A DNA stretch of 48,196 bases from an uncultured Acidimicrobiaceae bacterium (GTDB lineage: Bacteria > Actinomycetota > Acidimicrobiia > Acidimicrobiales > SZUA-35), in NCBI GenBank assembly GCA_964351995.1, contig CAYGQE010000001.1, forward strand, positions 1 through 48,196. The letters are read 5' to 3'. Shown one piece after another: positions 1,956 through 46,433 of this stretch (positions are counted from its first letter, which is position 1; each line of letters begins with the position of its first letter). The position numbers and the translations under genes are program-made. Below the pieces are notes generated by a model. The model was not told the DNA's origin. It saw only the letters and a program-made list of their open reading frames with translations, and ran no database searches.

Positions 1956-3527
1956 ATGGCTGTGCTCACCAAGGATGCTGCTGCAGAGCGAGGCAACGAC
2001 CTCGCCCTCGCTGACGAGGTTCGCACCCGAACGTGGGCCGAGCTCGACACCCATGTCAATCAACTGGTGCACGCCATGCGAGACGCTGGGATCGGCGCTG
2101 GCGACACGATCGCGCTCATCGCCGGCAACAGCGTCGAATGGTTCGAGACCATGTTCCTTGCCGCCCATGCCGGCCTGACCGTTGTGCCGGTCAACTGGCA
2201 TCTCGTTGGCCCCGAGATCGCCTACATCTTGAGCGACTCCGGGGCGAAGGCCGTGATTGCCGGTCACCAGTTCGAAGCAGCGGTCGCCAACGCGCTGGAT
2301 GATCCCTCGACCTCTACGGTCGAGCTCGCCTTGATCACCACCGGGCCCGATGCACCAACTACTGATCGCTTCCAGTCATACGACGAGTTCTTGGCGAGCG
2401 GCTCGGTTGAGGAGCCAGAAGGCCAGAGCTTCGGTGGCCCGATGTTCTACACCTCGGGCACGACGGGTCATCCCAAAGGGGTCAGTGGTTCGCTTGCGAG
2501 CATGCCGCCGGGAAGCGATCCGTCGATCTGGCAGCTGATCGGCAGCGGCATCGCTGGGTTCCTTCCCACTCCCGGCCGGACGGCCCTGTGCGGCCCGGCC
2601 TACCACTCGGCGCAATGGGCATTCTCGTTCTTGCCGCTGGTCGTCGGCTCATCCATCGTGATGCAGCACAAGTACGACAGTGCTGGCTTGCTCCGCATGA
2701 TCGATGAGCACGCCGTCACCAACGTGCACTTGGTGCCAACCCAGATGAAGCGGCTCACCGACCTTCCCAACGAGGTGAAGGCTGGCTTCGATGGCTCGTC
2801 GCTCGAGATGGTCCTGCATGGCGCAGCTCCATGCCCTCCAGGAGTGAAGCAATCGATGATCGACTGGTGGGGTCCGAAGATCACCGAGTACTACGGCTCG
2901 ACCGAAGGATCGGTCATCACGATGATCGATTCGGCCCAGTGGATGGCCAAGGGAGGCAGTGTCGGCCCTCCCTTGCCGGGTTTCGAGATCCTCGTGATCG
3001 ATGATGCCGGCCAGCGGGTCGGGCCGAATGAGAGTGGCACGCTCTACTTCCGCAGCGGGGCCGACTTCAGCTACCACAACGCGCCAGAGAAGACCGCCGA
3101 GGCTCACCTCGAACCCGGTGTCTTCACCACTGGCGACGTGGGCTTCCTCGACGATGAGGGCTATCTCTGGCTGAGCGATCGCAAGATCGACATGATCATC
3201 TCCGGCGGCGTCAACATCTACCCGGCCGAGATCGAGGGAGCCCTCGGCGACCACCCGTTGGTTGCTGATGTGGCCGTGATCGGTGTGCCAAACGATGACT
3301 TCGGCGAAGAGGTCAAAGCCGTGGTGGTGTTGAGCGACCGGGTTTCACCGCAAGACCAGGCCGCAACACTCGACCAACTTCGTGCCCACTGTCGAGAAAA
3401 CCTTGCCGGCTACAAGGTGCCCCGCTCGATCGATGTGGTCCACGAGCTTCCTCGCACCGGCACCGGCAAGGTCCAGAAGCGCAAGCTGCGTGACCCCTAC
3501 TGGGCTGACACCGATCGAGCGATTTAG
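1956..3527 (+). CDS. Acyl-CoA synthetase / AMP-dependent ligase (FadD-like)
   Basis: The AMP-binding motif YTSGTTGHPKGV is present, and the C-terminal GKVQKRKLRD lysine motif is present. I took the start at the internal ATG 1956 (MAVLTKDAAAERGNDLAL...), because the upstream part of the 1794 ORF overlaps the divergent gene. Confidence 0.85.
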   Translation: MAVLTKDAAAERGNDLALADEVRTRTWAELDTHVNQLVHAMRDAGIGAGDTIALIAGNSVEWFETMFLAAHAGLTVVPVNWHLVGPEIAYILSDSGAKAVIAGHQFEAAVANALDDPSTSTVELALITTGPDAPTTDRFQSYDEFLASGSVEEPEGQSFGGPMFYTSGTTGHPKGVSGSLASMPPGSDPSIWQLIGSGIAGFLPTPGRTALCGPAYHSAQWAFSFLPLVVGSSIVMQHKYDSAGLLRMIDEHAVTNVHLVPTQMKRLTDLPNEVKAGFDGSSLEMVLHGAAPCPPGVKQSMIDWWGPKITEYYGSTEGSVITMIDSAQWMAKGGSVGPPLPGFEILVIDDAGQRVGPNESGTLYFRSGADFSYHNAPEKTAEAHLEPGVFTTGDVGFLDDEGYLWLSDRKIDMIISGGVNIYPAEIEGALGDHPLVADVAVIGVPNDDFGEEVKAVVVLSDRVSPQDQAATLDQLRAHCRENLAGYKVPRSIDVVHELPRTGTGKVQKRKLRDPYWADTDRAI

Positions 3528-3574
3528 CCCCAAACGAAGTGCCGGCGGTTCATCGGCGGCACCAGTCGACTGAC

Positions 3575-3598
3575 TTGGGAGGGGTCGGGTCCTCCCAA
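3575..3598. repeat. GC-rich palindromic element, copy 2 (identical 24-mer)
   Basis: TTGGGAGGGGTCGGGTCCTCCCAA sits between the convergent gene ends at 3527 (+) and 3612 (-). Confidence 0.7.
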
Positions 3599-3611
3599 CT
3601 GGCTCGCTACT

Positions 3612-5024
3612 TCAATCGAGCAAGCGGGCGGTGCGCATCACGCCAGTGGCCCGATCGATGAACGTGCCGCTTGCCGCGTCCATGGCAATGATCATGGCCG
3701 GGCCATTCGGATGTTCTTCGAACCACCAGATGCGGTGCAGTTGTGTCGACTGTGTGGCTGTGTCGACGCCGTAGTCAGTTCGGAATGTGAGATCGCAAGG
3801 ATCCTCGGCACTGCAATCGGCATCGGGGTTCGCAAGCAGGTCGAACTGGATGACTTCGGTGCCATCGATGTCGAACCGCTCGATGTCACTCACCGACACC
3901 GCCGATGGCGGGGAGGCGAGGAAGGCCTCGATGTCGTCCATGAGCACGGCCTCACCGGCAACGAGGGGTCCCGCTGTTGGCACCGCATCAACCATGCCGT
4001 TGACCATCACCAGGTCTCGATCACCGGGGCCAATACTTCCCGTGGCCCCGATGGCAACGATCCCGGGGAAGTTCGGGAGCACGAACCAGTCCTCCCCGAG
4101 GTCGAGTACGAGGGCTCGACCGAAATTGTCGATCAGGTAACTACCAGGCTCGACCGGTGAGAAGGGGGCCCCGAGGAGTGGGGGTCCCCCTTCTACAACG
4201 TCGGCTGGCGGGGCCGGCTCGCCAGCTGGCTCCTCAGCCGCAGCCGTGTCGGAGGTCAGGACCTCGTCAAGGCCAGGACCGGTGAACGCCATGCTCGCCA
4301 GCAGCGTGCCGAACGCTGGCTCGAGTGTCTGGGCTTGGTCGGGCTCGAAGAAGGTCATGCCCGCCGTGAGGAGCCCACTTGGCGTTTCAGCGACGAAGGT
4401 GATGCCAAAGGGGAACGGGGACGCACCACTCTGCGGTTCGCTTCCCCGTCGTTGATCTGCGAACAAGAGCGTGTCAGCAGCAGCCAGGGGCGCCTCGGTG
4501 CGGTAGCCAATGAGGCGATACCCGAGGACATCGATCGCCGTTCCTGTTGGTTCGATCGTTGCGCCTGGCACCGACTCGATCGCCGCAATGAAGTCTGCGG
4601 GTTCGCTCACTGGATCGCCGCTCATCAATTGCGAAATGAGCCCAACAGCCGCCGTCGGACCGAACTCGTCAATGGGCCGATCGGAAACAACGACGGTGTC
4701 ACCGGACACGAACAGAGGGTCGCCATCTGCCACCTGGAAGGCCACCCCGCCCATCGAGGAGCCGCGATACAGCTGACGCCCTTCGTCTGGGCGAGTCGCA
4801 AAGGTCACAACATCGACAGAGGCTCCGTCGTCGGCGACATCGGGCTCGGCAGCATCCCGGACATCGCCCTCCAGGAGCGTGGTCTCAGTCGAGTCCACCT
4901 CGACAGCTTGCGTAGCATTCGCGCCGTCAGATGAGTTCGAACAGGCCGTGGCAACGAGTACGAGGGCCAGAACGCCCGATCGAAGTAGGTGCTGTCGGCG
5001 GCGAAGGCGATGGCTGCTGAACAT
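3612..5024 (-). CDS. Secreted lipoprotein of unknown function (about 470 aa, acidic)
   Basis: The internal ATG at 5024 is preceded by GGGGGA 6 nt upstream. The N-terminus MFSSHRLRRRQHLLRSGVLALVLVATACSNSS is a signal peptide with an L-V-A-T-A-C lipobox. I recognise no catalytic motif. Confidence 0.6.
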   Translation of the reverse strand: MFSSHRLRRRQHLLRSGVLALVLVATACSNSSDGANATQAVEVDSTETTLLEGDVRDAAEPDVADDGASVDVVTFATRPDEGRQLYRGSSMGGVAFQVADGDPLFVSGDTVVVSDRPIDEFGPTAAVGLISQLMSGDPVSEPADFIAAIESVPGATIEPTGTAIDVLGYRLIGYRTEAPLAAADTLLFADQRRGSEPQSGASPFPFGITFVAETPSGLLTAGMTFFEPDQAQTLEPAFGTLLASMAFTGPGLDEVLTSDTAAAEEPAGEPAPPADVVEGGPPLLGAPFSPVEPGSYLIDNFGRALVLDLGEDWFVLPNFPGIVAIGATGSIGPGDRDLVMVNGMVDAVPTAGPLVAGEAVLMDDIEAFLASPPSAVSVSDIERFDIDGTEVIQFDLLANPDADCSAEDPCDLTFRTDYGVDTATQSTQLHRIWWFEEHPNGPAMIIAMDAASGTFIDRATGVMRTARLLD

Positions 5025-5091
5025 GTGATTCCCCCATTGTTGGTTCGCGATCCACAACGACGGGCGACCACGCTTTCTGTCGCGGTGACTC

Positions 5092-5117
5092 GGAAATGCT
5101 GTCACGATGTTCCCGTT
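5092..5117 (+). promoter_or_regulatory. ECF-sigma-type promoter: GGAAAT-N16-CGTT, upstream of the ECF sigma gene
   Basis: GGAAAT lies at 5092-5097, followed by a 16-nt spacer and CGTT at 5114-5117. This matches the common ECF autoregulatory consensus GGAAC-N16/17-CGTT. It sits about 40 nt upstream of the sigma start. Confidence 0.4.
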
Positions 5118-5155
5118 GGCGACAGATTCGAGGGAGGTGCGTCGTCGTACCAGGC

Positions 5156-5713
5156 ATGAGGACCCCGAGCGACACGAACGCGGCACCGCTTTGCGCTCCC
5201 GACGTCCGTCAGCACCTCATTGATCTCTACGAAACAACCGTCGGAGATCTCTATCGGTTCTGCCTCTCACGAACGGGAGACCGGGCTGTTGCTGACGACG
5301 CCACTGCCGAAGCATTCCTTGCCGCAGCTCGAACGCTTCGAGAACACCCGGAGTCGGTCGTTGATCGTTCGTGGCTGTTCGTTGTTGCGAAGCGAAGAAT
5401 TGTCGATGCGTGGCGAGCCGAGGAGCGAAACGTTCGAAGACTCAACCGTTTGCGCAAGGAACGATCATCGGCCGACCACGACCCGATCGACGAGATGTTG
5501 GAGGATGGCGGGCGCTCCGAGGCAGTACTGCAGGCACTGCAGTCGCTACCGCCGAGACAAAGGGCAGCGATCACCTTGCGCTACCTCGACGAATGCTCAG
5601 TAGCCGAAGTGGCCGAAACGCTGGGGTGCGAGTACCAAGCCGCTGAATCACTTCTGGCACGTGGGCGACGTGGCTTTTCGATGGCGTGGCAGGAACAGAG
5701 GACACAGCGATGA
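5156..5713 (+). CDS. ECF (sigma-70 family, group 4) RNA polymerase sigma factor
   Basis: Sigma-70 region 2 (DLYRFCLSRTGDRAVADDATAEAFL) and region 4 (LPPRQRAAITLRYLDECSVAEVAETLGCEYQAAESLLARGRRG) are both present. The exact start is uncertain: ATG 5156 is chosen, and the track's 5096 start lies inside the promoter. Confidence 0.8.
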   Translation: MRTPSDTNAAPLCAPDVRQHLIDLYETTVGDLYRFCLSRTGDRAVADDATAEAFLAAARTLREHPESVVDRSWLFVVAKRRIVDAWRAEERNVRRLNRLRKERSSADHDPIDEMLEDGGRSEAVLQALQSLPPRQRAAITLRYLDECSVAEVAETLGCEYQAAESLLARGRRGFSMAWQEQRTQR

Positions 5714-6573
5714 CCGGGGAAAATTCTGAGCTGCTCACCGACTCTGAAATGGCCGAGCTTCTGCGATCACTCGAGACCCACAGTCAGCCGAACTCGGGAG
5801 AACGCGAACGACTCCTCAACGACATGCTCTCTGTTTTCGACGGCGTGAACGAGGCGGACGATCCACGACCCAGCATTGCCACCGTGATCGACGACGAGGT
5901 CACAACGCCACGGAAAGCCTCGACGCTGCGAACCGGCGAGTGGTTCTTGGCTGCCGCAGCCGTGCTGGCCCTCGCCTTCTGGGTCTCGAGACCTGATGTC
6001 TCGAACACCGCCGTCACCGCCTCGGAGACCACCGACCCAGTGCAGTCGGGGCCGACATCGCAGTCGGATGACCCCGGGACTGCAGTGCGATTCTCCAACT
6101 TTGGCGATGGAATACAGCTCCCCTTGCCAGACGGCATCACCGTGGTCGAAGAAACCAGCGATCGAATCTCCTTCACCAGGTCTGCTGATGATCTCTCTGG
6201 CTCGGCCGCCATCGTCCTGATCGCTACAGGGACCACGGACATTGATCAAGAGATCGAGCGTCTCGTTGACGACGAAGCCATCGTCGTCAACGACAGCCGC
6301 GTTCGTGTCGGGGATCAACTCCGCTCTCGCTGGGAAGTCACCATCAGCAACACCACCGCAGCAGATCTCGATTGTGTGGGCATCCAGCCGTGTTTGATCA
6401 TCCCGACCGACGGCGCTGACGTCGTGGTGTGGTCCGGAATCCCGACGATCATCACCTCTCTCGACGTCGATGAGGCCTCGCATGCCGTTTGGCTCGTTCG
6501 GCTCACGAGCTATCAGGACGCACGTGGGCGGACCGTCAGCGGCGAGATGTTGAACGGACTCGAGTTCGGCTGA
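5710..6573 (+). CDS. Putative anti-sigma factor (single transmembrane helix, extracytoplasmic C-terminal domain)
   Basis: The ATG at 5710 overlaps the sigma stop as ATGA, which is translational coupling. A cytoplasmic N-terminal segment is followed by one hydrophobic helix (WFLAAAAVLALAFWV) and a roughly 190-aa C-terminal domain. Calling it an anti-sigma factor is inferred from position. Confidence 0.6.
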   Translation: MTGENSELLTDSEMAELLRSLETHSQPNSGERERLLNDMLSVFDGVNEADDPRPSIATVIDDEVTTPRKASTLRTGEWFLAAAAVLALAFWVSRPDVSNTAVTASETTDPVQSGPTSQSDDPGTAVRFSNFGDGIQLPLPDGITVVEETSDRISFTRSADDLSGSAAIVLIATGTTDIDQEIERLVDDEAIVVNDSRVRVGDQLRSRWEVTISNTTAADLDCVGIQPCLIIPTDGADVVVWSGIPTIITSLDVDEASHAVWLVRLTSYQDARGRTVSGEMLNGLEFG

Positions 6574-6612
6574 CCTGCTCCTGGCCCGCTGCGTTTCATC
6601 TAGCGTTGGGCC

Positions 6613-7356
6613 ATGAAGCTCATTCCTTTGGAGATCGGTCGCCTCGAGGCCAGCCTGTCCATCATCACCGGCGCGGACGACACCGCCACCCTGCCAATTC
6701 CGAGCTGGTTGGTCGAGCATCCCGCTGGCTTGCTGCTGTTCGACACCGGACTCCACCCCGACCTCCAGACCAGCACCGATCGCATCGGCCGCTCGGCTCG
6801 ATTCTTCACGCCCGACTTCCCGGTCGGCGAAGAACTGGCCGCTCGATTGAACGCCCAGGGCATCCGCCCGTCCGACATCACCCACATCGTGTTCAGCCAT
6901 CTGCACTTCGACCACGTGGGTGGCACGGCCGAGGTGCCAGACGCTCGCATCATCGTGCAAGCCGACGAATGGTCGGCTGGCACTGATCCCCGGTTGATCG
7001 AGAAGGGCGCCTACATGCCCGACGACTATGTGCTGGGTCACGACATCCAGACCATCGAAGGGCTGCACGATGTGTTCGGCGACGGCAAGGTCATCTGCGT
7101 ACCGACACCCGGCCACACGATCGGGCACCAGTCGCTACGAGTGAACCTCGATGCTGGCCCCGTCGTGCTCACCGGCGACTGCATCTACTTCCACGAAATG
7201 CTCGAGAGCATGCAGGTGCCGAAGTTCGGTTACGACACCGACCAGCAGAAAGCGTCAATGATCGAGCTGCGGCGGCTCCGAGACGACGAGGGCTGTCGCC
7301 TGTTGTTCGGCCACGACGTCGATCAATTCCGCTCGCTCCCCGCTGTGCTCACGTAG
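6613..7356 (+). CDS. MBL-fold metallo-hydrolase, N-acyl-homoserine-lactonase (AiiA)-like
   Basis: The HxHxDH zinc motif (HLHFDHVGG) is present together with downstream His/Asp ligands (PGHTIGH, GHD). Size is about 250 aa, typical of AHL lactonases. The substrate is not proven. Confidence 0.75.
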   Translation: MKLIPLEIGRLEASLSIITGADDTATLPIPSWLVEHPAGLLLFDTGLHPDLQTSTDRIGRSARFFTPDFPVGEELAARLNAQGIRPSDITHIVFSHLHFDHVGGTAEVPDARIIVQADEWSAGTDPRLIEKGAYMPDDYVLGHDIQTIEGLHDVFGDGKVICVPTPGHTIGHQSLRVNLDAGPVVLTGDCIYFHEMLESMQVPKFGYDTDQQKASMIELRRLRDDEGCRLLFGHDVDQFRSLPAVLT

Positions 7357-9017
7357 GCCCGCCAACCGCCGAACGACGTGACTTCGGTGGAACCTTCCAA
7401 CGCACGGGGCTCGCACACGAAACCGGTGAGCTCCCGACCATCGGCAAGTGTGACGGTGCCGAGAGCAAGCGGTGCAGGAACCATCGTGAGGAAGGTGCCG
7501 AGCGCTGCAGGGGTGAGATCCCAGACGTCGACCTGAAGCGACGAACCCTCGAGATCAAAGATCACTCCCGGCTTCTTCGGCGGTCCACCCTCGAGAGCGA
7601 ACAGTCGATAGGTGGGTGCGGTTTGGGTTGTCTCGCGCCACACAGCGCCAAGGTCGGTCAGCTGCCACTCGAGCGGTTGCCCCTTGAGATGGGCACCAGC
7701 GACGACCAGCGGAATCATCGACTCCGCTCCGGGCTTCGGCTGCGGACTGCCCAAGACTTCACCGGCCACCATCATCAGCAGCTCATCGCTCCATGCCTTG
7801 CCATAGAGAGTGACGCCGAGCGGAACGGGTGACGAGTCGTCAGCTGGAATCGGAATCGAGAGTCCGGCGAGGTCGACCAAATTGGCGAACGTGGTGAAGC
7901 GCCCAAGCACACTGTTCACCCCAACGGGATCGGCCGCGACCTCGGCCAGCGAGGCGCCATGCGGCGTGGTGGGGAGGACCAACACGTCGATCTCGGCCAT
8001 GGCCTCGTCGATTTGGCGACGGAGAATTGCGAGGGAACCGGCGGCGTCGAAGACGTCGATCGCTGAGTATGCGAACCCGCCCGAGATGATCGCAGCGACT
8101 GTCGAGTCGACGGCGTCTAGGTGTTCGGCGATGAAGGCGCCGACCGCGTAGGTGCGCTCGGCCACCCAGGGACCGCCGTAGAGAAGATCGCCAGCGGCCG
8201 CGAAGGGAGCGAAGTCGATGGCCGATCGACGGTCCGCAGGGAGGGCATCGACCATCTCCACGTAGGCAGCGATCGTCCGGTCATCGGCGCCGAAGCTCGC
8301 CAGTACGTCAGCCTCGAGCACGCCGAAGCGAACCGCATCAACCGGCGGAGGCGAGACGGGCGGCCGCGAATACGGATCGGTATGCACGAAGCCCGATGCC
8401 GCTTCCAACACCAAGCGTGCGACATCAAGATCTGCGGCAAAGATCGACACGCAGTCGAGCGTGCGTACGGCGGGAACGACCCCCAGGGTCGACAACCGGC
8501 CAACCGTCGGCTTCACGCCGATCACTCCGCAGAACGCCGCCGGCACCCGTCCAGAACCTGCGGTGTCGGTACCGAGTGCGAAGTCGACGAGGCCACGAGC
8601 GGTCGCAACCGCAGAGCCCGAGCTCGATCCGCCGGGCACGTGCTCGGGATCGAACGGGTTGCGGGCCGTGCCGTAGGGAGAGCGCGTGCCGACCAAGCCC
8701 GTGGCGAACTGATCGAGGTTCGTCTTGGCAACGGGCAGAGCCCCCGCATCGATCAGCTGTTGCACCACCGGGGCGGATCCATCGGGGTCGTAGGCGTAGG
8801 CAGGGCAGCCCGCCGTGGTCGCCATTCCAGCGACGTCGATGTTGTCCTTTGCACCGAAGATCAAGCCGCGCAACGGCACGGCGGCTGCCGGCTTGGCGTC
8901 GATCGCCGACGCCAGCGACCGCAAGACCTCGGCGTTGCCGATCGAGATGAAGATGGCCGAGTCATCCAACTGTTCGATGTCAGAAAAGAATCGATCGAGT
9001 CGCTCTGCAGCGCTCAC
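7323..9017 (-). CDS. Allophanate hydrolase (amidase-signature N-domain plus allophanate-hydrolase C-domain)
   Basis: The amidase signature [10 protein letters not shown] and an upstream Ser/Lys context are present. The roughly 110-aa C-terminal extension is typical of AtzF-type allophanate hydrolases. The start is a GTG at 9017 that overlaps the upstream stop as GTGA. Confidence 0.8.
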
Positions 9018-9706
9018 TTGGAGCTCAGCACGTCGAGCAGAGCTGACGAGGTGGCAACCGCACCGAAGACTCCACCTTGCATCTTCACCATGTGCAGCGC
9101 AGCAAGGTAGTTGCCGTGATCGGTTGCTCCCGTGCAGTCCTCCAACAGCAAGCACTCGAAGCCGCGATCGTTTGCTTCTCGCATCGTGGTGTGGACACAG
9201 ACATCGGTGGTGATGCCGGTGAAGATCAGGTGGGTGATGCCCTTGTTCCGCAAGATCAATTCAAGATCGGTGGCATAGAAACTGCCTTTGCCCGGCTTGT
9301 CGATGATGTGCTCGCCCTCGATCGGGTAGACCTCGGGGACGATGTCCCACCCGGCTTCACCTCGCACCAAGATCCGGCCGCACGGGCCGGGGTCGCCAAT
9401 GCCGGCACCGATCTGCTGCGATCGCCACAGCTTGTTGGCCGGAAGGTCGGCCAAATCGGGCGAGTGCCCTTCTCGTGTGTGAATGACGTACATGCCTGCT
9501 TCTCGAGCGGCGGCAAGCACCTTGGCTGTTGGCTCGAGACCGGCCCTGGTCAGGTTCAGGTCGTAGCCCATGGCATCGACGTAGCCACCGGGACCGCAGA
9601 AGTCGGTCTGCCAGTCGATCAGCATCAGCGCCGTCTTGGATGGATCGATCGAGCCGTCGTATGGCCATGTGTACGGATCAGCGGCAACGGGTGGATAGGT
9701 GGTCAT
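9014..9706 (-). CDS. Isochorismatase-family cysteine hydrolase (biuret-hydrolase / N-carbamoylsarcosine-amidase-like)
   Basis: The protein is 230 aa with the isochorismatase-like fold. A catalytic Cys context ([12 protein letters not shown]) and an Asp/Lys triad context ([12 protein letters not shown]) are present. It is coupled by stop/start overlap to allophanate hydrolase downstream. Confidence 0.75.
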
Positions 9707-9924
9707 GAGGAAGCCTCCGGTTGGAAGAGTGTGAGGGTGTTGATGACGGCACCAGTTGTTCCGACTGCCACGGTGACCGACTCATCGCCCCAATCGTTGG
9801 AGCATCGAACTGTGCTGTGGACGGTCGTTTCGAAGCCACTGCCACAAACCACGATCACACCCGTGCTCGCGTCGAGCATGCCGTCGTACGGCCAGGCAGA
9901 CGGAGTGGTGTCAGGCGCAAGCAT
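9703..9924 (-). CDS. Small hypothetical protein (73 aa) in the coupled operon
   Basis: ATG at 9924 with a GGAGG RBS 7 nt upstream. A TGATG overlap links it to the upstream gene, and an ATGA overlap links it to the downstream gene. It contains a WPYDG motif that also occurs at the N-terminus of the adjacent isochorismatase-like protein. Confidence 0.45.
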
Positions 9925-10661
9925 CAGGTGACCTCCAGGAGAAACCGGTGGACCGCCGCAGCAAAGTCGTCCGGTTGATCGATCAAAACGTGATGGCCGC
10001 AGTTGTCGATCGTTGCAACGTCCGACGACCCTCCAGCGAGGAGGGCAGCCACGCGATGTCGGGCGGCACTTGAGTGAGCACCAACCGTCGTGAGATGCGG
10101 GACAGGGAGTGTCCGCACCTCAGTCGCCGGCGGTTGATACTCACTGAAATGCCGGACTTCACGACAGATCGTGGCGATGTGATCAGCGGCCCAGAGATGA
10201 GCCACAGCCGGCATTCGCTGCCAGCTCTTGGCCCCATACAGACCTTCGAGAAAACCCTCGGCTGCTTCAGGCGTCGGAGTCGCTTCCAGCGCATTCGCTC
10301 CACCCCGCACCCGGTCGTCGATCTCTGGCTCGAGATGGCCGATCAACGGTTCATGGCTCACCGCTGCAACCAGTCCGTCGATGCCGCGAGCGGCACAGGC
10401 TAACGCCAGCGTCGCTCCCCCGCTCACCCCAACAAGAGCAGCCGGAGCACGGGCGGCGACCATCTCGGCGAGACCGTCGACCTGCTCGGCGAGATTGGCA
10501 ACCGCAGGGATCAGGCCATAGCCAGGACGGGTCACCGCCGCCGACGTCGACCCAAAGTCGAGATCGTCGAACAGGCCGGGCCAGAGGCCAACCCCGTGAA
10601 CGCACAAGATGGTGAGCGCAGCACGCTGTTCGACCACGCGCTCGGAAGTCTCGAGAGGCAT
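9924..10661 (-). CDS. Alpha/beta-fold hydrolase
   Basis: An HG oxyanion motif (LCVHGVG), a GxSxG nucleophile (GVSGG) and a C-terminal His (NCGHHVL) are present. The start is ATG at 10661. The track ORF extends to a TTG at 10883, so the N-terminal extent is uncertain. Confidence 0.7.
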   Translation of the reverse strand: MPLETSERVVEQRAALTILCVHGVGLWPGLFDDLDFGSTSAAVTRPGYGLIPAVANLAEQVDGLAEMVAARAPAALVGVSGGATLALACAARGIDGLVAAVSHEPLIGHLEPEIDDRVRGGANALEATPTPEAAEGFLEGLYGAKSWQRMPAVAHLWAADHIATICREVRHFSEYQPPATEVRTLPVPHLTTVGAHSSAARHRVAALLAGGSSDVATIDNCGHHVLIDQPDDFAAAVHRFLLEVT

Positions 10662-11102
10662 GCTCAGCGCATCGTCGCCCCGCCGTTCTAACAAGCGCGA
10701 AGCGGTCTGGTGGTGCTGGATGATCGTCTGGTTGACACGATCGGCAATGAGGAGATCGTGCAGCCGTACGATGCGGATGCGCTCGTATACACAAGCGTCG
10801 AAGGTATGGAAGACGTGTTTCGGGGGTGTTGCCCAGCGGTGAGCAGCCGGGGTCGGCCACCTGAACGGGAACCGTTTCGTCAACGTTCAGTCGGAGAGTT
10901 CAAGCTGGCAACCCAGCGAACGGATTGAACATCAACCGCATGCCGCCGGGGACGATTGCCTCGACATGATCGTTGCCTTCAACCCCTCCGGGAACTCAAG
11001 AACCTGATGGCGGTAGAACGCCACCGCCATGTCGGCCACCATCACTCCGATTGCATCAGCTCGAATGGTCATGACGCCGCGACGAAGCGGTACAACTTCT
11101 CC

Positions 11103-11444
11103 ATGACTGTCGTGAAGATCAACGCACTCGAGATTCCACCCCAGGCCGGCGATGAAATCGTCAAGCGATTCACCGCTCGCATGTCGAGCCTGGCTGATGT
11201 CGCTGGCTTCGAGGGATTCGAACTCCTTCGCCCGACGGGAGAGGCCGAAACCCGCTGGTTCGTCTACACCCGCTGGGCTGACCAAGCGGCATATGAAGGC
11301 TGGCGTGACGGCGATGGTGCTCAGAACGCGCACGCCAAGCCGAACGGAGCCGAAGAGGGCGAAGCGCCGCAGCGCCCCGTCAGCATGGGCGCCACCCTGC
11401 TCGAGTTCGAGGTCGAGGTCGAGGTCGGCCCCAGCGGCAAGTAG
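11103..11444 (+). CDS. Antibiotic-biosynthesis-monooxygenase (ABM) domain protein
   Basis: The ABM ferredoxin-like fold segments are present (MTVVKINALEIPP...FEGFELLRP...WFVYTRWADQAAYEGW). The start is at the internal ATG 11103. The C-terminus carries an EVEVEV repeat encoded by (gaggtc)x3. Confidence 0.7.
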   Translation: MTVVKINALEIPPQAGDEIVKRFTARMSSLADVAGFEGFELLRPTGEAETRWFVYTRWADQAAYEGWRDGDGAQNAHAKPNGAEEGEAPQRPVSMGATLLEFEVEVEVGPSGK

Positions 11445-11617
11445 TACCGGGGTCAGGTCCCTTCAACTTCAACTTCACGTCCGACGAGAGCTGAAGCGAA
11501 CGGCCCTGATCCCGTTTGGAGAATTGGGGAACTCTTGGGGATGTGAAGCCGTTCACAGTCTCAACACCTGCGGCGTGCCAACATGGTCACGTCATCGCCG
11601 ACTGGAGAGGGGGCCGG

Positions 11618-12280
11618 GTGTCTGAGTTCTTTGAAATCGTGTTCGGCCTACCCACGATCCTGTTCACTGCCGCGCTCGCCATCAGCCTCGGCTTCTTCCT
11701 CATCACCTTCCTGTTCGGTGTGGGCGAAGGTGGAGGAAGCGACTTCGACGTCGAGCTCGATGCTGGCGGTCCAGACGCTGGCGGGTCTGACGGTGCCGAC
11801 GGCGACAGCACCGGTGCACTCGCTGGCCTGCTCCAAGCCGCCAACCTGCACATACTTCCGCTGGCCCTGACCTTCGCCATCGTCTCGCTGGTCGGCTGGT
11901 TCATTTCAGCGGTGTGCACCCTGTTGCTCACCTCGGACAACTCTCCCAACTTCGCAGCATCGCTTGCCTTCGTGCTCACTGGCCTCGCCGGAGGCATCTT
12001 CGTTGCCGGTCGAGTCGGTAACCTTCTCAGCCCGATCTTCGTGCCCGCTGTCCACGTCAAGCGCCGTGACCTCATCGGCCGCCTGTGCACCGTGCAGACC
12101 GGCCGAGTCGACCGAAACTTCGGTCAAGCCGAAGTGGTCGACGGCGAACGAAGTACTCATCTCATCCAAGTCCGATGCGAGATCGACAACGATCTTCGCT
12201 CGGGCATGCGTGCCCTCATCGTCGATGTCGACGACGACGGCCGCTTCATCGTGTCGCCCGACGTGAAAGACCTCGTCTGA
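11618..12280 (+). CDS. NfeD-like membrane protein (YuaF/NfeD short form) with C-terminal OB-fold
   Basis: GTG at 11618 with a GGAGAGG RBS 8 nt upstream. There are two or three TM helices, a Gly/Asp-rich linker and a C-terminal beta-rich domain. The position immediately upstream of a flotillin gene is the classic nfeD-floT arrangement. Confidence 0.65.
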   Translation: MSEFFEIVFGLPTILFTAALAISLGFFLITFLFGVGEGGGSDFDVELDAGGPDAGGSDGADGDSTGALAGLLQAANLHILPLALTFAIVSLVGWFISAVCTLLLTSDNSPNFAASLAFVLTGLAGGIFVAGRVGNLLSPIFVPAVHVKRRDLIGRLCTVQTGRVDRNFGQAEVVDGERSTHLIQVRCEIDNDLRSGMRALIVDVDDDGRFIVSPDVKDLV

Positions 12281-12365
12281 CCGGCGCCAGAGCCACACAG
12301 CAAGAGCACGACCGAAGCATCGAAAGCATCAAGTACCGAACACCAAGCATCGAAAGCAGAAACGC

Positions 12366-14327
12366 ATGGGCACCATCATCCTCATTCTCGTCTTCCTGGT
12401 CCTGGGAGTCCTGGCCTTCGCCGTCCTGGCCGGCCTGGTGTACTCATCGCTGTACAAGAAGGTGCCACAGGGCAAGGCACTCGTTGTCTCCACGGCCAAG
12501 AACGTCGAGGTGACCTTCACTGGTCGCCTTGTGATCCCCGTGATCCACAAGGCCGAGATGATGGACATCTCGGTCAAGACCATCGAGATCGATCGCAGAG
12601 CGCACGAGGGTCTGATCTGCGAAGACAACATCCGAGCCGACATCAAGGTCAATTTCTTCGTTCGGGTCAACAAGGCCGAAGAAGACGTGATCAAAGTGGC
12701 TCAAGCCATTGGTTGCGAGCGAGCCAGCCAGGTCGAAACCTTGGAAGAGCTCTTCACCGCAAAGTTCTCCGAGGCGCTCAAGACCGTCGGCAAGCAGATG
12801 GAGTTCATCTCGCTCTACACCGAGCGGGCCAGCTTCCGTGACCGCATCATCGAGGTCATCGGCACCGACCTCAACGGCTACAGCCTCGAAGACGTCGCCA
12901 TCGACTTCCTCGAGCAGACGCCGCTGAGCCAGCTCGACGCCGACAACATCCTCGACTCACAGGGCATTCGCAAGATCACCGAGCTGACCGCCATCGAGAA
13001 GGTCGCTACCAACAACGCTGCCAACGACGAGCGAAAGCAGATCACAGCCAAGAACGTCGAGACCCGTGAAGCCGTGCTCGAACTCGAGCGCCAGCAGGCC
13101 GATGCCGAGGCTCGGCAACGTCGAGAGATTCAGGGCGTGCAGGCTCGCGAGCAAGCCACAATCGACACAATTACCGCCGAAGAGCGACTGCGGGCCGAGA
13201 TGGCCGCGATCGAAGTCGACCAGAAGCTTGGCGTCGAACGAGAAAACCTGCAGCGCGAGGTCGAAGTCGCGGCGAAGAATCGTGAGCGCGTCCTCGCCGT
13301 CGAAGAAGAGCGAGTCAAGAAAGCCGCCGAACTCGAAGACATGAGCCGCCAAGTCGAGACGCTCGCTGCCGAGAAGGCACTCGAAACCGAGATGGGCACG
13401 ATCGCCGAGATTCGCCGAAGCCGCATTGCCATCGACAAGACCGTGGCCGAACAAGAAGAAGCCATCGAGACATTGCGCATGGTCGAGGAGGCGCAACGTC
13501 AGAAGCAGTCAGCAATCATCCTCGCTGAGGGTGAAGCGGAAGCCGCGCTGGTCAAGGACATAAAGGCCGCCGAAGCACAGGCGGCAGCTGCCGAACACCT
13601 GGCCGCCGAAGACGTTCGCATGGCCAAGGGTCGAATGGAGGCAAGCAACCTCGACGCCGCAGCGAAGATCAAGCTGGCCGAAGGTGTCCAGGCCGAAGCA
13701 GCCGCAGTTGGTCTGGCCGAAGTCGAAGTGCTGGAAGCCCGAGCTGCGGCCAACGAAAAGCTCGGTCTCGCCGATGTCACCGTCGAACGAGCCAAGGCCG
13801 ACGCCGTGCGTGAGCTCGGTGCCGCCGAGGCCTCCAAAGTCCGCGACGCCGGAATGGCCGAGGCTGAAGTTGTCGAGGCCAAGCTCAAGGGTGAGGCCAG
13901 CGGTCTGACCGACAAGGCTGCGGCCATGCGCGAGCTCGAAGGGGTTGGCCAAGAGCACGAGGAATTCGTGCGCAAGCTGGAAGCCGACACGAAGGTGCGG
14001 CTGGCACAAGTCGATGCATCCATCGACGTGGCGACGGCACAGGCCGATGCGATGAAGGTCGGTCTGGAGAGCGCCAACATCGACATCGTCGGCGGCTCGG
14101 ACATCTTCATCGACAAACTGGTCGGCGCCATCAGCACCGGCAAGGCCGTCGATGGCTTCGTCGAGAGTTCCGACCTTGCGTCGGCATCGCTCGAGAAGTA
14201 CCAGAACGGTGACGAGGACTTGGTGGCCAAGATCTCCGAAGCCATCGCTGGTCTCGGCGCCGACGGCATTCGCGACCTCTCCGTTGCTGATCTCCTTCGC
14301 CAGCTCGGTGCCGGTCCTCGGCCCTAG
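12366..14327 (+). CDS. Flotillin-like protein (SPFH/band-7 domain plus long EA-rich coiled coil)
   Basis: An N-terminal TM/hairpin helix and an SPFH core (KVPQGKALVVS...IKVNFFVRV) are present. An extended Glu/Ala/Arg-rich coiled-coil region of about 350 aa resembles FloT-type flotillins. Confidence 0.8.
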   Translation: MGTIILILVFLVLGVLAFAVLAGLVYSSLYKKVPQGKALVVSTAKNVEVTFTGRLVIPVIHKAEMMDISVKTIEIDRRAHEGLICEDNIRADIKVNFFVRVNKAEEDVIKVAQAIGCERASQVETLEELFTAKFSEALKTVGKQMEFISLYTERASFRDRIIEVIGTDLNGYSLEDVAIDFLEQTPLSQLDADNILDSQGIRKITELTAIEKVATNNAANDERKQITAKNVETREAVLELERQQADAEARQRREIQGVQAREQATIDTITAEERLRAEMAAIEVDQKLGVERENLQREVEVAAKNRERVLAVEEERVKKAAELEDMSRQVETLAAEKALETEMGTIAEIRRSRIAIDKTVAEQEEAIETLRMVEEAQRQKQSAIILAEGEAEAALVKDIKAAEAQAAAAEHLAAEDVRMAKGRMEASNLDAAAKIKLAEGVQAEAAAVGLAEVEVLEARAAANEKLGLADVTVERAKADAVRELGAAEASKVRDAGMAEAEVVEAKLKGEASGLTDKAAAMRELEGVGQEHEEFVRKLEADTKVRLAQVDASIDVATAQADAMKVGLESANIDIVGGSDIFIDKLVGAISTGKAVDGFVESSDLASASLEKYQNGDEDLVAKISEAIAGLGADGIRDLSVADLLRQLGAGPRP

Positions 14328-14409
14328 GGGGCCTGCCGTTCCTCGGCCCTGGGGGCCTCGTCACTAACAGAGTTGCTCGCTGGCGCTCACAACTCCCACC
14401 TGGGAAGAC

Positions 14410-17400
14410 ATGACTGATACTGAAAGTTCAACAATTGAAGAAGCACCGGCGAGCAGCAATGAGGGGATCTCGCAGGGGACCTATGACTTGCTTCGAGGGC
14501 GGCTGGAAGCCGCGGCCAAGGAACTGGTCAAGCGAGCGGATGCTCTCAACGCCCGGCGGCTTGAGGCGTTCGGTTCAGCCAAGCTCGAACTGCTGACGAC
14601 GGAACGGGTTCGGACCGAGCTCAACACGATCCCGCGCGACATCGCCAACATCGGCTCGCAGATGGTCATGGCCTACAACGCCGAGGTCGGCGTCCGGTCA
14701 GAGGTCCGACCGGAGGACGTCTTCAGCGTCCATCACCTCGAGCCCGGCTCCGAGGGCGACGCCACCCTGTGGTTCAGTCCGAACCCCAAAGGTCTCGACG
14801 GCTCAGCCCTCGATGACGACCAGTTCCGTCGTGACTTCGAAGAGCTCCACACCTACTTCAGTCAGACAAAACTCGAACAGCTCTACGCCGTTGGCCAGAA
14901 GCTGTTGGCGGTGTTTCGCACCGGCCAAGGCGAGGGCGACCTTCGCGTCTTCCGTTGGGAGATCGGACTCGACGACCAGCTGACCTACCTCGACGCTCGA
15001 GGCGATCGAGACCACCGCTTCCCGCCGTCACAAGACGTCTCGTGGACGTTGTCGACCCGCGCCGATCACGTCAACGCCACGCATGTGGGGCTGGGCGAGC
15101 GCGTGCTGATCGACCCGCTCGGCGGGTCGCTGGTGATCCAACTGGCCGATGGCGGAGGCGATGGTTCAGGCACAAAGCTGCTGAGCGATCGCCTCGACCA
15201 CGCTGACCAGAGCTTGCAGGACTGCACCATTCGCTGGGCCAGAGCTGGCGATCTGATGCTGATCGACGTGCTTCCCTACGGCGAAGTTCAGCACCGCTAC
15301 TACATCGTGAATCTGCTGGTCGACAAGGCCGTCCGCATGGATGCGCTGGGGTCTGCGTTCCGTCAGCTACCCGATGGCCAGGGCCTCATCTTTCCCGAGG
15401 GCATCTACCTCAAGACCGGCGAGATGCGAACCTTCGATGTCGACTCTGCCAACGCCGAGTTGCTCGAAGTGGTCCGCTCCCCCAACGGCGAAGACGTGCT
15501 CTACGTCTTCCACGAACGCACCTCCGGCCGTTCCATCTTGTTGCCGTACAACGTGGTGCGTCAGGAAGTGGCGGCACCGATCTGGTGTCACGGTCACACC
15601 GTGTTCGATGACGGAACGCTTGTGGTGTTTCGCGAGGAGCCAGAGCCCACACGCATCCATCCGATGCAGGTTTGGTCGACGCCGTTCGGCGCCGACGAGT
15701 GGTATGCCCAACAGCCACGCACCGCATCAAACCTTGACCGCATCGGTAACGCCAGCCTCGTCAGCGGCATCGCCGACGCACTCTCGCTGTCCCGGCTGAT
15801 CGCCGACGTCGAGCCGTCGACCGCCATCTACACCGATCTCCTGTTGTCCGCTAGCCGATTCGTCGACAGCCATCACTGGAGCGGTGACGAAACTGTTGGC
15901 AACCTGGCCGAGAGCGCCCACGACATACGTGTCGTTGCGGAGCAGGTCATCGACGAGTTCGAGCGTATGCAAGCGGTACAAGCTGCGGCCGCTGCAGCCC
16001 TGGCAGAGGCCGAAGCCGAAGCGCTCAAGATCACCGATGACCTTCGCCTCTCGCCGCCGAAGACCACCGAGGGTTTCATTGACGGCCTGGCCGCGATCCG
16101 TCGCCAGATCGGACACCTCCACACCGAGCGTGAGCGCCGCGGTATCGACATCGCTCGCATCGACGAGCTGATCACCTCGACCACCGAAATCCACGACACG
16201 CTTGCCCAGCAAGCAGCGGCTCACCTCGCCGCCGACGGAGCGTTCGAGCCGTACCACCAGCAACTCACTACGCTCTCCAACGCCACCCCCGCTGCAGCGT
16301 CGTCACTGGAAGCAACCGAGACCCTCGAAGCCGTCGATGCACTGGCTGAATCGATGGATCTGGTCGCCAACACGGTGAGCGATCTCGTCGTTGACGACCC
16401 TCGCGTGCGCACCTCGGTGCTCGAACAGGTGGCGGGCGTGCTCGCCGAGATGAATCGGGTGCGGGCCGGCATCGAAGGCAAGCGAGATGAGCTGATCCAG
16501 AACGAGACCGGCGCGGCCTTTGCCACTGAGCTCGGCTTGTTCGGCCAGTCGATCGCCACTGCAGTCAGCCGGGCCAACACCCCTGAAGCCTGCGACGACG
16601 CGTTGGCCCGTCTCTTGCTTCAGCTCGAACAACTCGAAACCGCTGGTCCCCGCACCGACGACCAGGTCGAGGAGCTCTCCACCAGGCGAGACCAGGTCAC
16701 CGAGGCACTCACGTCTCGTCGGCAGCAACTGGTCGACGATCGCCAGCAGCGAGCCGATCGACTGATCGCCGCCGCCACCCGAACCCTGGACCGAGTGGCC
16801 GAGCGGGCACAGACAATGCCGTCAGCCGACGACGTCAACGCCTTCTTCGCCGCCGACCCCATGGTCGGCCGTGTCCGCAAACTGGTCGAGGATCTCCGCG
16901 AGCTCGGTGAGCCCGTCAGAGCAGACGAATTGCAGTCACAACTCGGCGCCTCCCGGGACCGTGCCGTCCGTGCGCTGCGAGACCGCCAGGATCTCTTCGA
17001 CGGCGACGCCGTGAAGCTCGGCCGCTTTCGCTTCAGCGTGGACGATCGCACCCGCGAACTCACGCTCGTCCCCGGCGAGCATCACCTGCAGGCCGTGCTC
17101 ACCGGCACCGATCTGCGACTCCCCATCGAAGACGAACGACTTGATGCTCACAAAGAGCTCTGGGAGCAACCGCTGGCATCTGAGACGCCCAAGCTGTACC
17201 GATCAGCCTTCCTCGCCGGCGACCTCCTCCTCACCGCACTCAGTCAATTCAATTCGTCTGAACAGCTCGACGGCGAGATCTCGCTCACTATTCCAGAGCC
17301 CAAGATCGGCACGGTCGACGGTGCCGTCACGCCGGGTGACACGACCGCATTGCTCGATCAGGTCCGATCGGCGGTTGATCGGCGCCTCGGCGAGGGGTAC

Positions 17401-33040: not shown

Positions 33041-33132
33041 GGAGAGGTGACAGAGTACGGTCGATTGTGCCTCCCTGCTAAGGAGGTGTGGGTTTACGCC
33101 CACCGTGGGTTCAAATCCCACCCTCTCCGCCA
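33041..33132 (+). tRNA. tRNA-Ser (anticodon GCU), long variable arm, CCA encoded
   Basis: I folded the cloverleaf by hand. The acceptor is GGAGAGG/CCTCTCC with G73. The anticodon stem is CCTCC/GGAGG with loop CUGCUAA, giving anticodon GCU. The variable arm is an 18-nt stem-loop. The T-arm is GTGGG-TTCAAAT-CCCAC. Confidence 0.85.
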
Positions 33133-35913: not shown

Positions 35914-36687
35914 ATGTCGTCGCGCCGCCTCAGTGAACTCCGAGCCTCGGATCTTCTCGATCATCTGACCGATGAGTCGATCCTGGTGCTGCCGATGGGA
36001 GCCATCGAGCAGCACGGCCCTCACCTTCCGTTCAGCACCGACCTCGAGATTGCCAGAGCCTGCGCCGAAGCTGTCGTCGACCAGGTGGGCGACGAACACG
36101 ACCTCTGGCTGCTCGAACCTCTGGCGTTCACCAAGTCAAACGAGCACGCTGGCACGCCCGGCACGTTCTGGCTGGGGCCCGAGACCCTCCTTCGTGTCCT
36201 CGATGACATCGGTCGCTCGATGGCAGCCACACCGGCTCGCAAGCTGGCCTTCCTCAACGGTCACGGCGGCAACTCATCGTTGATCAACGTGGCGTGCCGG
36301 GAACTTCGCCTCCATCACGGCCTCGAGACGTTCCTGATGCACCCCAACGTGCCACCAGATCAGGGCGGCCCGTCCAGCGAAGAAGAGCTCGGCTTCGGCA
36401 TCCATGGCGGCGTGGGCGAGACGTCGATCATGCTGCACCTGCGGCCCGACCTCGTGCGCATGGAGCTGGCCTCACGCAACGTGCCGGAACACCTGGCTGA
36501 GAACGAGCACGTGAAGTTCGGCGGCACCGTCAGCTTCGGTTGGTTGGCCAGCGACTTCGGGCCAGACGGCCACATTGGTGACCCGACCGGCGCAACTCCC
36601 GAGCGAGGCAAACAATCCTTCGAGGCCGCAGTCTCACGTCTCAGCGCCGCCTTCGGCGAAATCGCCGATTTTCGCTTCCGCACCTGA
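35914..36687 (+). CDS. Creatininase-family amidohydrolase
   Basis: A family metal-site motif (PMGAIEQHGPHLP, D, E...H) is present and the length is about 257 aa. Confidence 0.75.
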   Translation: MSSRRLSELRASDLLDHLTDESILVLPMGAIEQHGPHLPFSTDLEIARACAEAVVDQVGDEHDLWLLEPLAFTKSNEHAGTPGTFWLGPETLLRVLDDIGRSMAATPARKLAFLNGHGGNSSLINVACRELRLHHGLETFLMHPNVPPDQGGPSSEEELGFGIHGGVGETSIMLHLRPDLVRMELASRNVPEHLAENEHVKFGGTVSFGWLASDFGPDGHIGDPTGATPERGKQSFEAAVSRLSAAFGEIADFRFRT

Positions 36688-46359: not shown

Positions 46360-46433
46360 GCGCCCGTAGCTCAATTGGATAGAGCATCTGATTACGGATC
46401 AGAAGGTTTGGGGTTCGAGTCCCTACGGGCGCG
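46360..46433 (+). tRNA. tRNA-Arg (anticodon ACG)
   Basis: I folded the cloverleaf by hand. The acceptor is GCGCCCG/CGGGCGC with G73. The D-stem is GCTC/GAGC. The anticodon stem is TCTGA/TCAGA with loop TTACGGA, giving anticodon ACG. The T-loop is TTCGAGT. CCA is not encoded. Confidence 0.85.

Follow-up and report, generated by a model that had tools for sequence, protein, structure and literature searches.

The first 48,196 nucleotides of contig CAYGQE010000001.1 (assembly GCA_964351995.1) from an uncultured Acidimicrobiaceae bacterium, hereinafter the window, contain on the minus strand a compact array of overlapping open reading frames (ORFs) that includes predicted genes for biuret hydrolase (BiuH) and allophanate hydrolase. 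With a probability of roughly 0.8, this locus is a deletion derivative, that is, an eroded remnant, of a conserved actinobacterial cassette, in which the two-step enzymatic core remains intact. The undamaged form of the cassette, found in relatives, is a nine-gene unit encoding a GntR regulator, the ATPase and two permeases of an ATP-binding cassette (ABC) transporter, the binding protein Bmp, an alpha/beta hydrolase, an isochorismatase-like protein denoted here pseudo-BiuH, BiuH and allophanate hydrolase. The features of the window locus are as follows.

9014-9706, minus strand: biuH, predicted biuret amidohydrolase of 230 amino acids (aa), assigned by the NF050097 equivalog model, solved structures and active site residues
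7323-9017, minus strand: predicted allophanate hydrolase of the AtzF type, 564 aa from GTG 9017, assigned by TIGR02713, NF006043 and Pfam
9703-9924, minus strand: 73-aa ORF, relic of pseudo-BiuH, recognized by BLASTP, blastn, tblastn and protein alignment
9924-10661, minus strand: predicted alpha/beta hydrolase, 245 aa from ATG 10661 (Pfam Abhydrolase_6, 43.9 bits)
10617-10802, minus strand: 3' remnant of a gntR gene (FCD domain) whose helix-turn-helix end is gone (tblastn, blastn)
10924-11072, minus strand: remnant of a glyoxalase family gene, the first ~52 codons, frameshifted and truncated (tblastn, and blastn synteny with the related contig L083)
6613-7356, plus strand: gene for a lactonase-like protein of the metallo-beta-lactamase (MBL) fold (Pfam Lactamase_B), convergent with the array, a conserved neighbor outside the operon

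An earlier sequence-only reading of this stretch described the four overlapping ORFs as a translationally coupled hydrolase operon. All four ORFs and their overlapping stop and start codons (TGATG, with a 1-nt overlap; ATGA and GTGA, with 4 nt each) are real, and profile searches back three of the four, those for the alpha/beta hydrolase, BiuH and allophanate hydrolase, as genuine genes; what did not hold is the completeness of the operon, which appears to be the stump of the nine-gene cassette, with the regulator and the transporter gone. The ATGA and GTGA overlaps are also present in intact relatives (positions 10282-10285 and 10971-10974 of contig L084) and hence are inherited rather than fortuitous.

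The biuret hydrolase and allophanate hydrolase core

The 230-aa protein belongs to the isochorismatase superfamily (137 bits to Pfam Isochorismatase) and matches the NCBIfam BiuH equivalog NF050097 over all of its positions (1-221 of 221) with 423.4 bits, well above the cut-off of 370 bits. Among proteins with solved structures, it scores highest with BiuH of Rhodococcus sp. Mel (6XJM; 390 bits, 76% identity) and BiuH of Rhizobium leguminosarum (6AZO; 383 bits, 73% identity), and is less similar to TrtA (6XIX; 211 bits) and RutB (104 bits). The catalytic triad of BiuH consists of Asp36, Lys142 and Cys175, and biuret is bound by Lys145, Thr171, Phe41 and Gln215, the latter contributed by the neighboring subunit (Esquirol et al., PMC5806882). 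All these residues have exact counterparts in the window protein, namely, D31, K137 and C170 for the triad and K140, T166, F36 and Q210 for the biuret-binding residues, and Q33 corresponds to Gln38 of the Rhizobium enzyme. The characterized BiuH has a kcat/KM for biuret of about 1e5 per M per s (PMC5806882). Thus far, the sequence-only reading, which likened the cysteine hydrolase upstream of allophanate hydrolase to BiuH, stands in the strict sense: this protein is predicted, with good support from sequence, to be a true biuret hydrolase that converts biuret to allophanate and NH3. The pyrazinamidase-like clustering that the same reading named as the contrary outcome was not observed. Pyrazinamidase (PncA) and RutB identities are ruled out by low scores (37 bits for the PncA model and 116 bits for the RutB-like model), and TrtA is rejected given its 211 bits compared with 390 bits for BiuH. 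The biuH gene has GC fractions of 0.60/0.47/0.75 over the three codon positions and is preceded by GGAGG 7 nt upstream of its ATG.

The last gene of the array encodes what is, on the strength of its profile matches, a well-supported full-length allophanate hydrolase of the AtzF type, predicted to hydrolyze allophanate. It scores 625.5 bits with TIGR02713 (cut-off 511 bits) and 676 bits with NF006043, and contains both the Amidase (257 bits) and the AH_C (146 bits) domains of Pfam, whereas the AtzE models yield 171-177 bits, below their cut-offs. The predicted core chemistry, from biuret to allophanate and NH3 and further to 2 CO2 and 2 NH3, is likewise well supported and already known, the BiuH to AtzF route being established (PMC5806882, PMC7948467). 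As the earlier reading noticed, no urea carboxylase or cyanuric acid hydrolase is seen: Pfam searches of the ~35 larger ORFs of the window detected neither AtzD/TrzD nor urea carboxylase, the smaller ORFs being outside the scan.

A variant with a different amidase exists among the related loci. L010, L011, L013, L021, L024, L029, L063 and L069 encode, instead of the full enzyme, a shorter amidase with 33-35% identity to residues 48-415 of allophanate hydrolase and no AH_C match; in L010, L011 and L013, this gene is followed by that for the alpha/beta hydrolase.

The ancestral cassette and its deletion derivative

The closest homologs of the window alpha/beta hydrolase (70-73% identity) are encoded on three long contigs, L083-L085, where the gene order is ABM, glyoxalase, gntR (FCD), ABC ATPase, two BPD_transp_2 permeases, Bmp, alpha/beta hydrolase, a 193-aa isochorismatase-like protein, BiuH and allophanate hydrolase, followed by a convergent MBL gene and genes for an AMP-binding enzyme and RPE65. 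The ABM, MBL, AMP-binding and RPE65 flanks are shared with the window. The nine-gene unit is also present in L086-L089, with hydrolase identity down to 29%, and in L003, L005-L008, L015 and L016. In L084, a perfect 12-bp hairpin (GTGCCTGTCCTC ATGT GAGGACAGGCAC; positions 8957-8990) is located between the bmp stop codon and the hydrolase start codon and may be an internal terminator or attenuator.

Comparison with L083 and L084, using blastn, tblastn and protein alignment, maps the deletion junctions in the window. Three segments of the window align with L083 at the nucleotide level: 11444-10927 corresponds to ABM and the 5' end of the glyoxalase gene, 10792-10615 to the 3' part of gntR (L083 3804-3990), and 10616-9881 to the hydrolase gene from its fifth codon onward. 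Missing between these segments are ~0.7 kb of the glyoxalase gene and the gntR 5' end, and ~5.0 kb comprising the transporter and the Bmp gene. The remnants are recognizable at the protein level as well. Residues 158-225 of the L084 GntR match the window at 10802-10608 (59% identity, E=4e-18), and the L084 glyoxalase matches in two different frames, residues 1-35 at 11072-10974 and residues 30-52 at 10992-10924. This glyoxalase remnant is divergent from ABM, the real start of which is at 11103, and the 30-nt divergent region between the two (11073-11102) is retained.

At the second junction, gntR and the alpha/beta hydrolase gene have been joined in frame, the 3' end of the former running into the latter within the codon 10616-10614. 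With a slash marking the junction, the parent sequences are '...SMHLEVSERVVEQRAAL/ALSRML*' for GntR and 'MNRSL/TIVCVHGVG' for the hydrolase, and the window fusion protein is 'SMPLETSERVVEQRAAL/TILCVHGVG' (that is, ...SERVVEQRAAL/TILCVHGVG). Therefore, ATG 10661, the start codon implied by the sequence-only reading, is an internal methionine codon of the old regulator gene: the hydrolase ORF is real, and its apparent start lies in gntR-derived sequence. The ancestral hydrolase gene accounts for no more than 10616-9924, and residues 1-15 of the 245-aa product are derived from gntR. The ATG has no evident Shine-Dalgarno sequence and the frame is open upstream to TTG 10883. The native start is deleted, and with the ATG in gntR-derived sequence the true start of this gene is uncertain.

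The 73-aa relic and the pseudo-BiuH family

The second ORF of the array, which the sequence-only reading counted among the four genes, is instead, as alignments with its relatives indicate, the relic of a catalytically dead BiuH paralog. It has no Pfam hit, including none of the GatC/AtzG type, shows a faint match to the NCBIfam BiuH model (E=0.0067), and has a weak coding signature unlike that of its neighbors (GC fractions of 0.55/0.57/0.68 over the codon positions). In BLASTP, it weakly resembles BiuH in two stretches, around WPYDG near the N-terminus and around TTDVCVHTT. Alignment with the 193-aa protein of the nearest relatives resolves this pattern: the relic consists of residues 1-30, 124-145 and 173-193, with residues 31-123 and 146-172 deleted in frame (93 + 27 = 120 of the 193 codons) at the junctions 9835/9834 and 9769/9768. 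The ATG, the GGAGG 7 nt upstream of it and the stop codon overlapping the biuH start are all retained, while the conserved motifs are altered (PY to PS, NDRGY to NDWGD) and the entire MSGGIFG loop is gone. The AtzG/GatC-like small subunit identity is accordingly rejected for this ORF, which has no hit to these families and is clearly homologous to the 193-aa isochorismatase-fold protein; moreover, the neighboring amidase is of the AtzF type.

A protein search for other carriers of the relic returned only the window sequence itself and one more, on the 3.8-kb contig L001. Two scans of metagenomes, based on the fusion ORF and on a DNA pattern spanning the deletion junction, respectively, added none. 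The two relics are 89% identical and differ by 8 non-synonymous and 4 synonymous substitutions, spread 4/4/4 over the codon positions, with a ratio of non-synonymous to synonymous rates (dN/dS) of 0.67. This mode of evolution is compatible with neutrality and is more relaxed than that of the intact paralog (0.67 vs 0.16, p=0.014).

The intact paralog is widespread. A BiuH scan of species-representative genomes yielded 80 loci, in 31 of which, all of the actinobacterial type, the gene directly upstream of biuH encodes a protein of 180-220 aa with 27-43% identity to BiuH. These proteins retain the PYxWPYDG, VHSTxRxANDRGYECL and MSGGIFGAVG motifs and have lost the catalytic residues: Asp is replaced by Gly, Lys by Ala, Cys or Ser, and Cys by Thr, Pro, Ala, Ser or Gly (Cys is kept in 2 of the 31), and Gln215 has become Ser. 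The 120 best database paralogs show this pattern as well: Lys is never found (0/120; replaced by Ala, Ser, Cys or Val), Cys is found in 4/120 and Ser takes the place of Gln215 in 119/120. More than 1300 database proteins match this family at E<=1e-5, the top 120 being 45-100% identical. The full-length protein scores 84 bits with BiuH as opposed to 45 bits with TrtA, its model is confident (predicted local distance difference test score, pLDDT, 94) and superimposes on BiuH with a template modeling (TM) score of 0.80, and in intact loci it evolves under purifying selection (dN/dS 0.16). Because the triad is lost while the fold is confidently predicted and selection is purifying, the upstream paralog is classified, from sequence, as a conserved pseudoenzyme and named pseudo-BiuH. 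Two other identities were rejected for it: an active isochorismatase-like cysteine hydrolase, given the loss of the Asp-Lys-Cys triad, and TrtA, given the missing triad and the greater similarity to BiuH. In databases, members of this family are labeled "isochorismatase", "nicotinamidase-related amidase" or even "biuret amidohydrolase".

The distribution of pseudo-BiuH among the 80 loci is distinctive. Bmp is present in 28 of the 29 pseudo-BiuH loci, and pseudo-BiuH (29 loci) and TrtA-like genes (29 loci) overlap in only 2 (p=2.5e-5); the reference copy of the TrtA-like genes is closest to TrtA.

In two loci, L023 (6287-7693, 469 codons) and L069 (6263-7702, 480 codons), pseudo-BiuH and BiuH are encoded in one uninterrupted ORF, in which biuH still has an internal AAGGAG..ATG. 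This arrangement hints at a gene fusion and a physical partnership of the two proteins.

The alpha/beta hydrolase

The 245-aa protein can be predicted to be a serine alpha/beta hydrolase from the nucleophile elbow, the His, the HG motif and the modeled fold, and it looks intact, as far as sequence and model indicate. All 12 invariant columns of the 50-sequence family alignment are present in it; the invariant or nearly invariant residues include HGVG, R45, S80 within GVSGGAT, H103-E104-P105 and H223, and the AlphaFold2 model has a pLDDT of 96. By inference, E104 of the invariant HEP motif is the candidate catalytic acid. The Foldseek matches are generic esterases, MenH and enol-lactonases (TM score ~0.7, 16-21% identity), and the best match of the family profile in the PDB, at 42 bits, is an esterase. 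No RutD match was found in NCBIfam at E<=0.01, and RutD and NicD are absent from the top 50 structural matches. Assignment of a PcaD or BioH type was rejected (16 bits each vs cut-offs above 200), and so was any assignment of a substrate from fold or profile, all matches being generic and the NCBIfam hits sub-threshold. Entry of substrate through this enzyme, as the sequence-only reading suggested, is conceivable but speculative.

The comparison with L001 yields 9 substitutions in the hydrolase segment, too few to judge selection; in intact loci, the gene is constrained (dN/dS 0.21). It is found next to Bmp, pseudo-BiuH and BiuH in every context examined (L083-L089). Among the 80 loci, the hydrolase is encoded in 19, of which 15 also contain pseudo-BiuH (p=1.8e-5, uncorrected for shared ancestry). 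Hence this family seems to be specific to the biuH cassette.

What the two accessory proteins do in intact relatives can be addressed only tentatively. Pseudo-BiuH might be a working subunit that forms heteromers with BiuH, retunes its pocket and replaces TrtA, and the alpha/beta hydrolase might act on a biuret-related compound, for example, by deacylation or decarboxylation. Pseudo-BiuH keeps the N-terminal PYxWPYDG arm and the C-terminal loop which, in BiuH, reaches into the active site of the neighboring subunit, and carries Ser in place of Gln215. This proposal is regarded as doubtful. If true, the window would be a natural experiment in which BiuH and allophanate hydrolase persist without their partner, transporter and regulator.

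A different view, closer to the sequence-only reading, is that the window encodes four working proteins that constitute a single unusual route, in which some precursor is turned into biuret or a similar ureide by the alpha/beta hydrolase and the 73-aa protein serves as a small subunit similar to AtzG, which reportedly is the small partner of AtzE. The preserved family-invariant residues and confident fold of the hydrolase would fit such a route, as would its presence in biuH cassettes throughout the contexts examined, its co-occurrence with pseudo-BiuH (15/19 loci, p=1.8e-5, with shared ancestry uncorrected) and the GGAGG, ATG and stop/start overlap that the 73-aa ORF retains. However, this ORF is homologous to the 193-aa protein minus 120 codons, with motif residues and the MSGGIFG loop lost, it evolves with dN/dS of 0.67 and it lacks any Pfam hit, those of the GatC/AtzG type included; the native start of the hydrolase is deleted, and no fold or sequence match points to a ureide as its substrate. 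A route of four working proteins thus appears improbable.

Function of the remaining core

Under the preferred reading, in which the locus is an eroded cassette with an intact two-step core, four deletions have occurred. One removed most of the glyoxalase gene together with the 5' part of gntR; a second, of ~5 kb, eliminated the whole transporter and fused the gntR 3' end to the alpha/beta hydrolase gene; and the third and fourth cut into the pseudo-BiuH gene at two internal sites and reduced it to the 73-codon relic. In the surviving core, the Cys170 nucleophile of BiuH would deamidate biuret to allophanate and NH3, and allophanate hydrolase would convert allophanate to 2 NH3 and 2 CO2. The enzymes would have to be expressed, possibly from the retained divergent glyoxalase/ABM promoter region; biuret would have to reach them without a dedicated transporter; and the alpha/beta hydrolase presumably still does its job.

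Between the window and L001, biuH differs by 44 synonymous and 5 non-synonymous substitutions (dN/dS 0.03) and the allophanate hydrolase gene by 190 and 65, respectively (dN/dS 0.09). Because both lineages carry the relic, the two genes appear, by these substitution patterns, to have been maintained without pseudo-BiuH.

Several observations weigh against this interpretation. The identity between the window and L001 is mosaic, ranging from 73 to 100% over the 3.8-kb overlap (6613-10362), which indicates recombination among related lineages and weakens the case for long maintenance after the deletions; the timing of the maintenance is insecure because recombination has shuffled the segments. 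Contig L001, of only 3.8 kb, begins within the hydrolase gene and so does not reach the transporter region. No sigma-70-like promoter and no riboswitch (Rfam) was detected in 6500-11600, where terminator-like sites occur at chance level, so expression is only inferred. Furthermore, the dedicated transporter and regulator are lost, tblastn detected no Bmp or permease homolog in the rest of the 48 kb, and the enzymatic activity of the core is itself a prediction.

The low synonymous rates (dS) of the hydrolase and the relic (0.04-0.08 vs 0.3-0.6 in the neighbors) might have suggested nucleotide-level constraint or an RNA element. This explanation was rejected: the mosaic identity is typical of recombination and the Rfam search came out empty.

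An alternative view holds that the locus is decaying in its entirety and is not expressed, with BiuH and allophanate hydrolase looking intact only because the decay is recent. The four deletions, the absence of a regulator, a transporter and the promoter region of gntR, the failure to find a promoter-like site and the mosaic identity that shows recent recombination are all in line with a dead locus. On the other hand, the excess of synonymous over non-synonymous changes between two relic-bearing lineages (44 vs 5 in biuH and 190 vs 65 in the allophanate hydrolase gene), the lack of frameshifts and stop codons in the 2.4 kb of these two genes, the preservation of all catalytic residues and the retention of the divergent ABM/glyoxalase promoter region make a wholly dead locus quite improbable. 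That the cysteine hydrolase acts on another substrate, such as triuret, carboxybiuret, an N-carbamoyl amino acid or ureidoacrylate, is barely credible: the transporter of the intact relatives is of the Bmp/nucleoside type and a 2025 study left the substrate of archaeal BiuH homologs open (PMC12625717), but the window protein is 73-76% identical to two characterized, highly specific BiuH enzymes, with identical substrate-binding residues, and scores only 211 bits with TrtA and 104 bits with RutB.

Relationship to known systems

The window has the same two enzymes, in the same order, as the BiuH-AtzF branch of cyanuric acid/biuret mineralization in Rhizobium leguminosarum bv. viciae 3841, Rhodococcus sp. 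Mel and Herbaspirillum. It differs in that no AtzD/TrzD is encoded nearby, the alpha/beta hydrolase gene and the pseudo-BiuH relic are located upstream, and the regulator and transporter are deleted. Herbaspirillum sp. BH-1 (PMC7948467) and metagenome-assembled genomes of nitrifiers (PMC12625717) are known to contain clusters in which biuH, atzF, trtA and trtB are combined with gntR and bmpA-nupABC. The intact relatives of the window locus share gntR, the Bmp-type ABC transporter, biuH and atzF with these triuret/biuret clusters, whereas their second isochorismatase-like gene is a dead paralog devoid of the Asp, Lys and Cys rather than an active TrtA. The triuret/biuret clusters carry TrtB where the relatives have the alpha/beta hydrolase, although no search aimed at TrtB was made. 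A superficial likeness links the window to the AtzE-AtzG-AtzH system of Pseudomonas sp. ADP (PMC6219798), in which an ORF of ~70 aa accompanies an amidase-signature enzyme, likewise in a cyanuric acid/biuret setting; the window differs in that its 73-aa ORF is an isochorismatase-fold fragment and its amidase is of the AtzF rather than the AtzE type.

The same two folds are also encoded side by side in pathways of N-heterocycle degradation that liberate ammonia from an amide or ureide, where an isochorismatase-like amidase is paired with an alpha/beta hydrolase: RutB/RutD in the case of pyrimidines and NicF/NicD in the case of nicotinate, with NicD removing a formyl group and thereby making the NicF substrate. 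No specific similarity of the window proteins to these pairs was found, and the parallel is one of analogy only.

Altogether, the result for the window itself is mostly a correction, comprising a known route, one relic gene and a chimeric start of the first gene; annotation of the locus as a complete biuret utilization operon would be an overstatement given that the uptake system and the regulator are gone. The new part is modest and lies in the relatives, with a widespread, constrained pseudo-BiuH and a dedicated alpha/beta hydrolase that almost never occur together with TrtA. Many Actinomycetota encode the nine-gene cassette, always with the constrained dead copy ahead of BiuH and usually with the alpha/beta hydrolase there as well, and this arrangement apparently is an undescribed variant of the biuret/triuret cassette. 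No paper was found that links biuH to an alpha/beta hydrolase or biuret to the BMP family, within a literature coverage that was partial and leaves room for an earlier description of the cassette. The mislabeling of pseudo-BiuH leads to overcounting of the capacity for biuret degradation in metagenomes. Both biuret and triuret occur as fertilizer impurities and as products of purine oxidation, and the roles of the two accessory proteins would complete the picture of biuret/triuret nitrogen use by soil and water actinobacteria.

Other genes in the window

The MBL gene downstream of the array is also present in L001 and in L083-L085, and the AttM and AiiA models match it only below their cut-offs. 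Its 3' end overlaps that of the allophanate hydrolase gene by 34 nt (7323-7356), as is the case in L001, and the two genes are separated by a 23-nt gap in L083. Compared with L083, a segment of ~3.1 kb (3527-6613) is inserted in the window between the MBL and AMP-binding genes; it encodes a 524-aa protein without a Pfam hit, an extracytoplasmic function (ECF) sigma factor (5096-5713) and a probable anti-sigma factor (5686-6573). On the other side of the array, a three-gene run on the plus strand (11516-19470) encodes proteins of 254 and 653 aa without Pfam hits and a 1686-aa protein that contains DUF3686 ('ATPase involved in DNA repair'), DUF7902 and AAA domains. Further along the window are a gene of the creatininase family (35914-36687), a region (40962-42958) that encodes an EgtD-like histidine methyltransferase (Methyltransf_33) followed by a protein with His_Phos and GNAT domains, and two tRNA genes (33041-33129 and 46360-46433).

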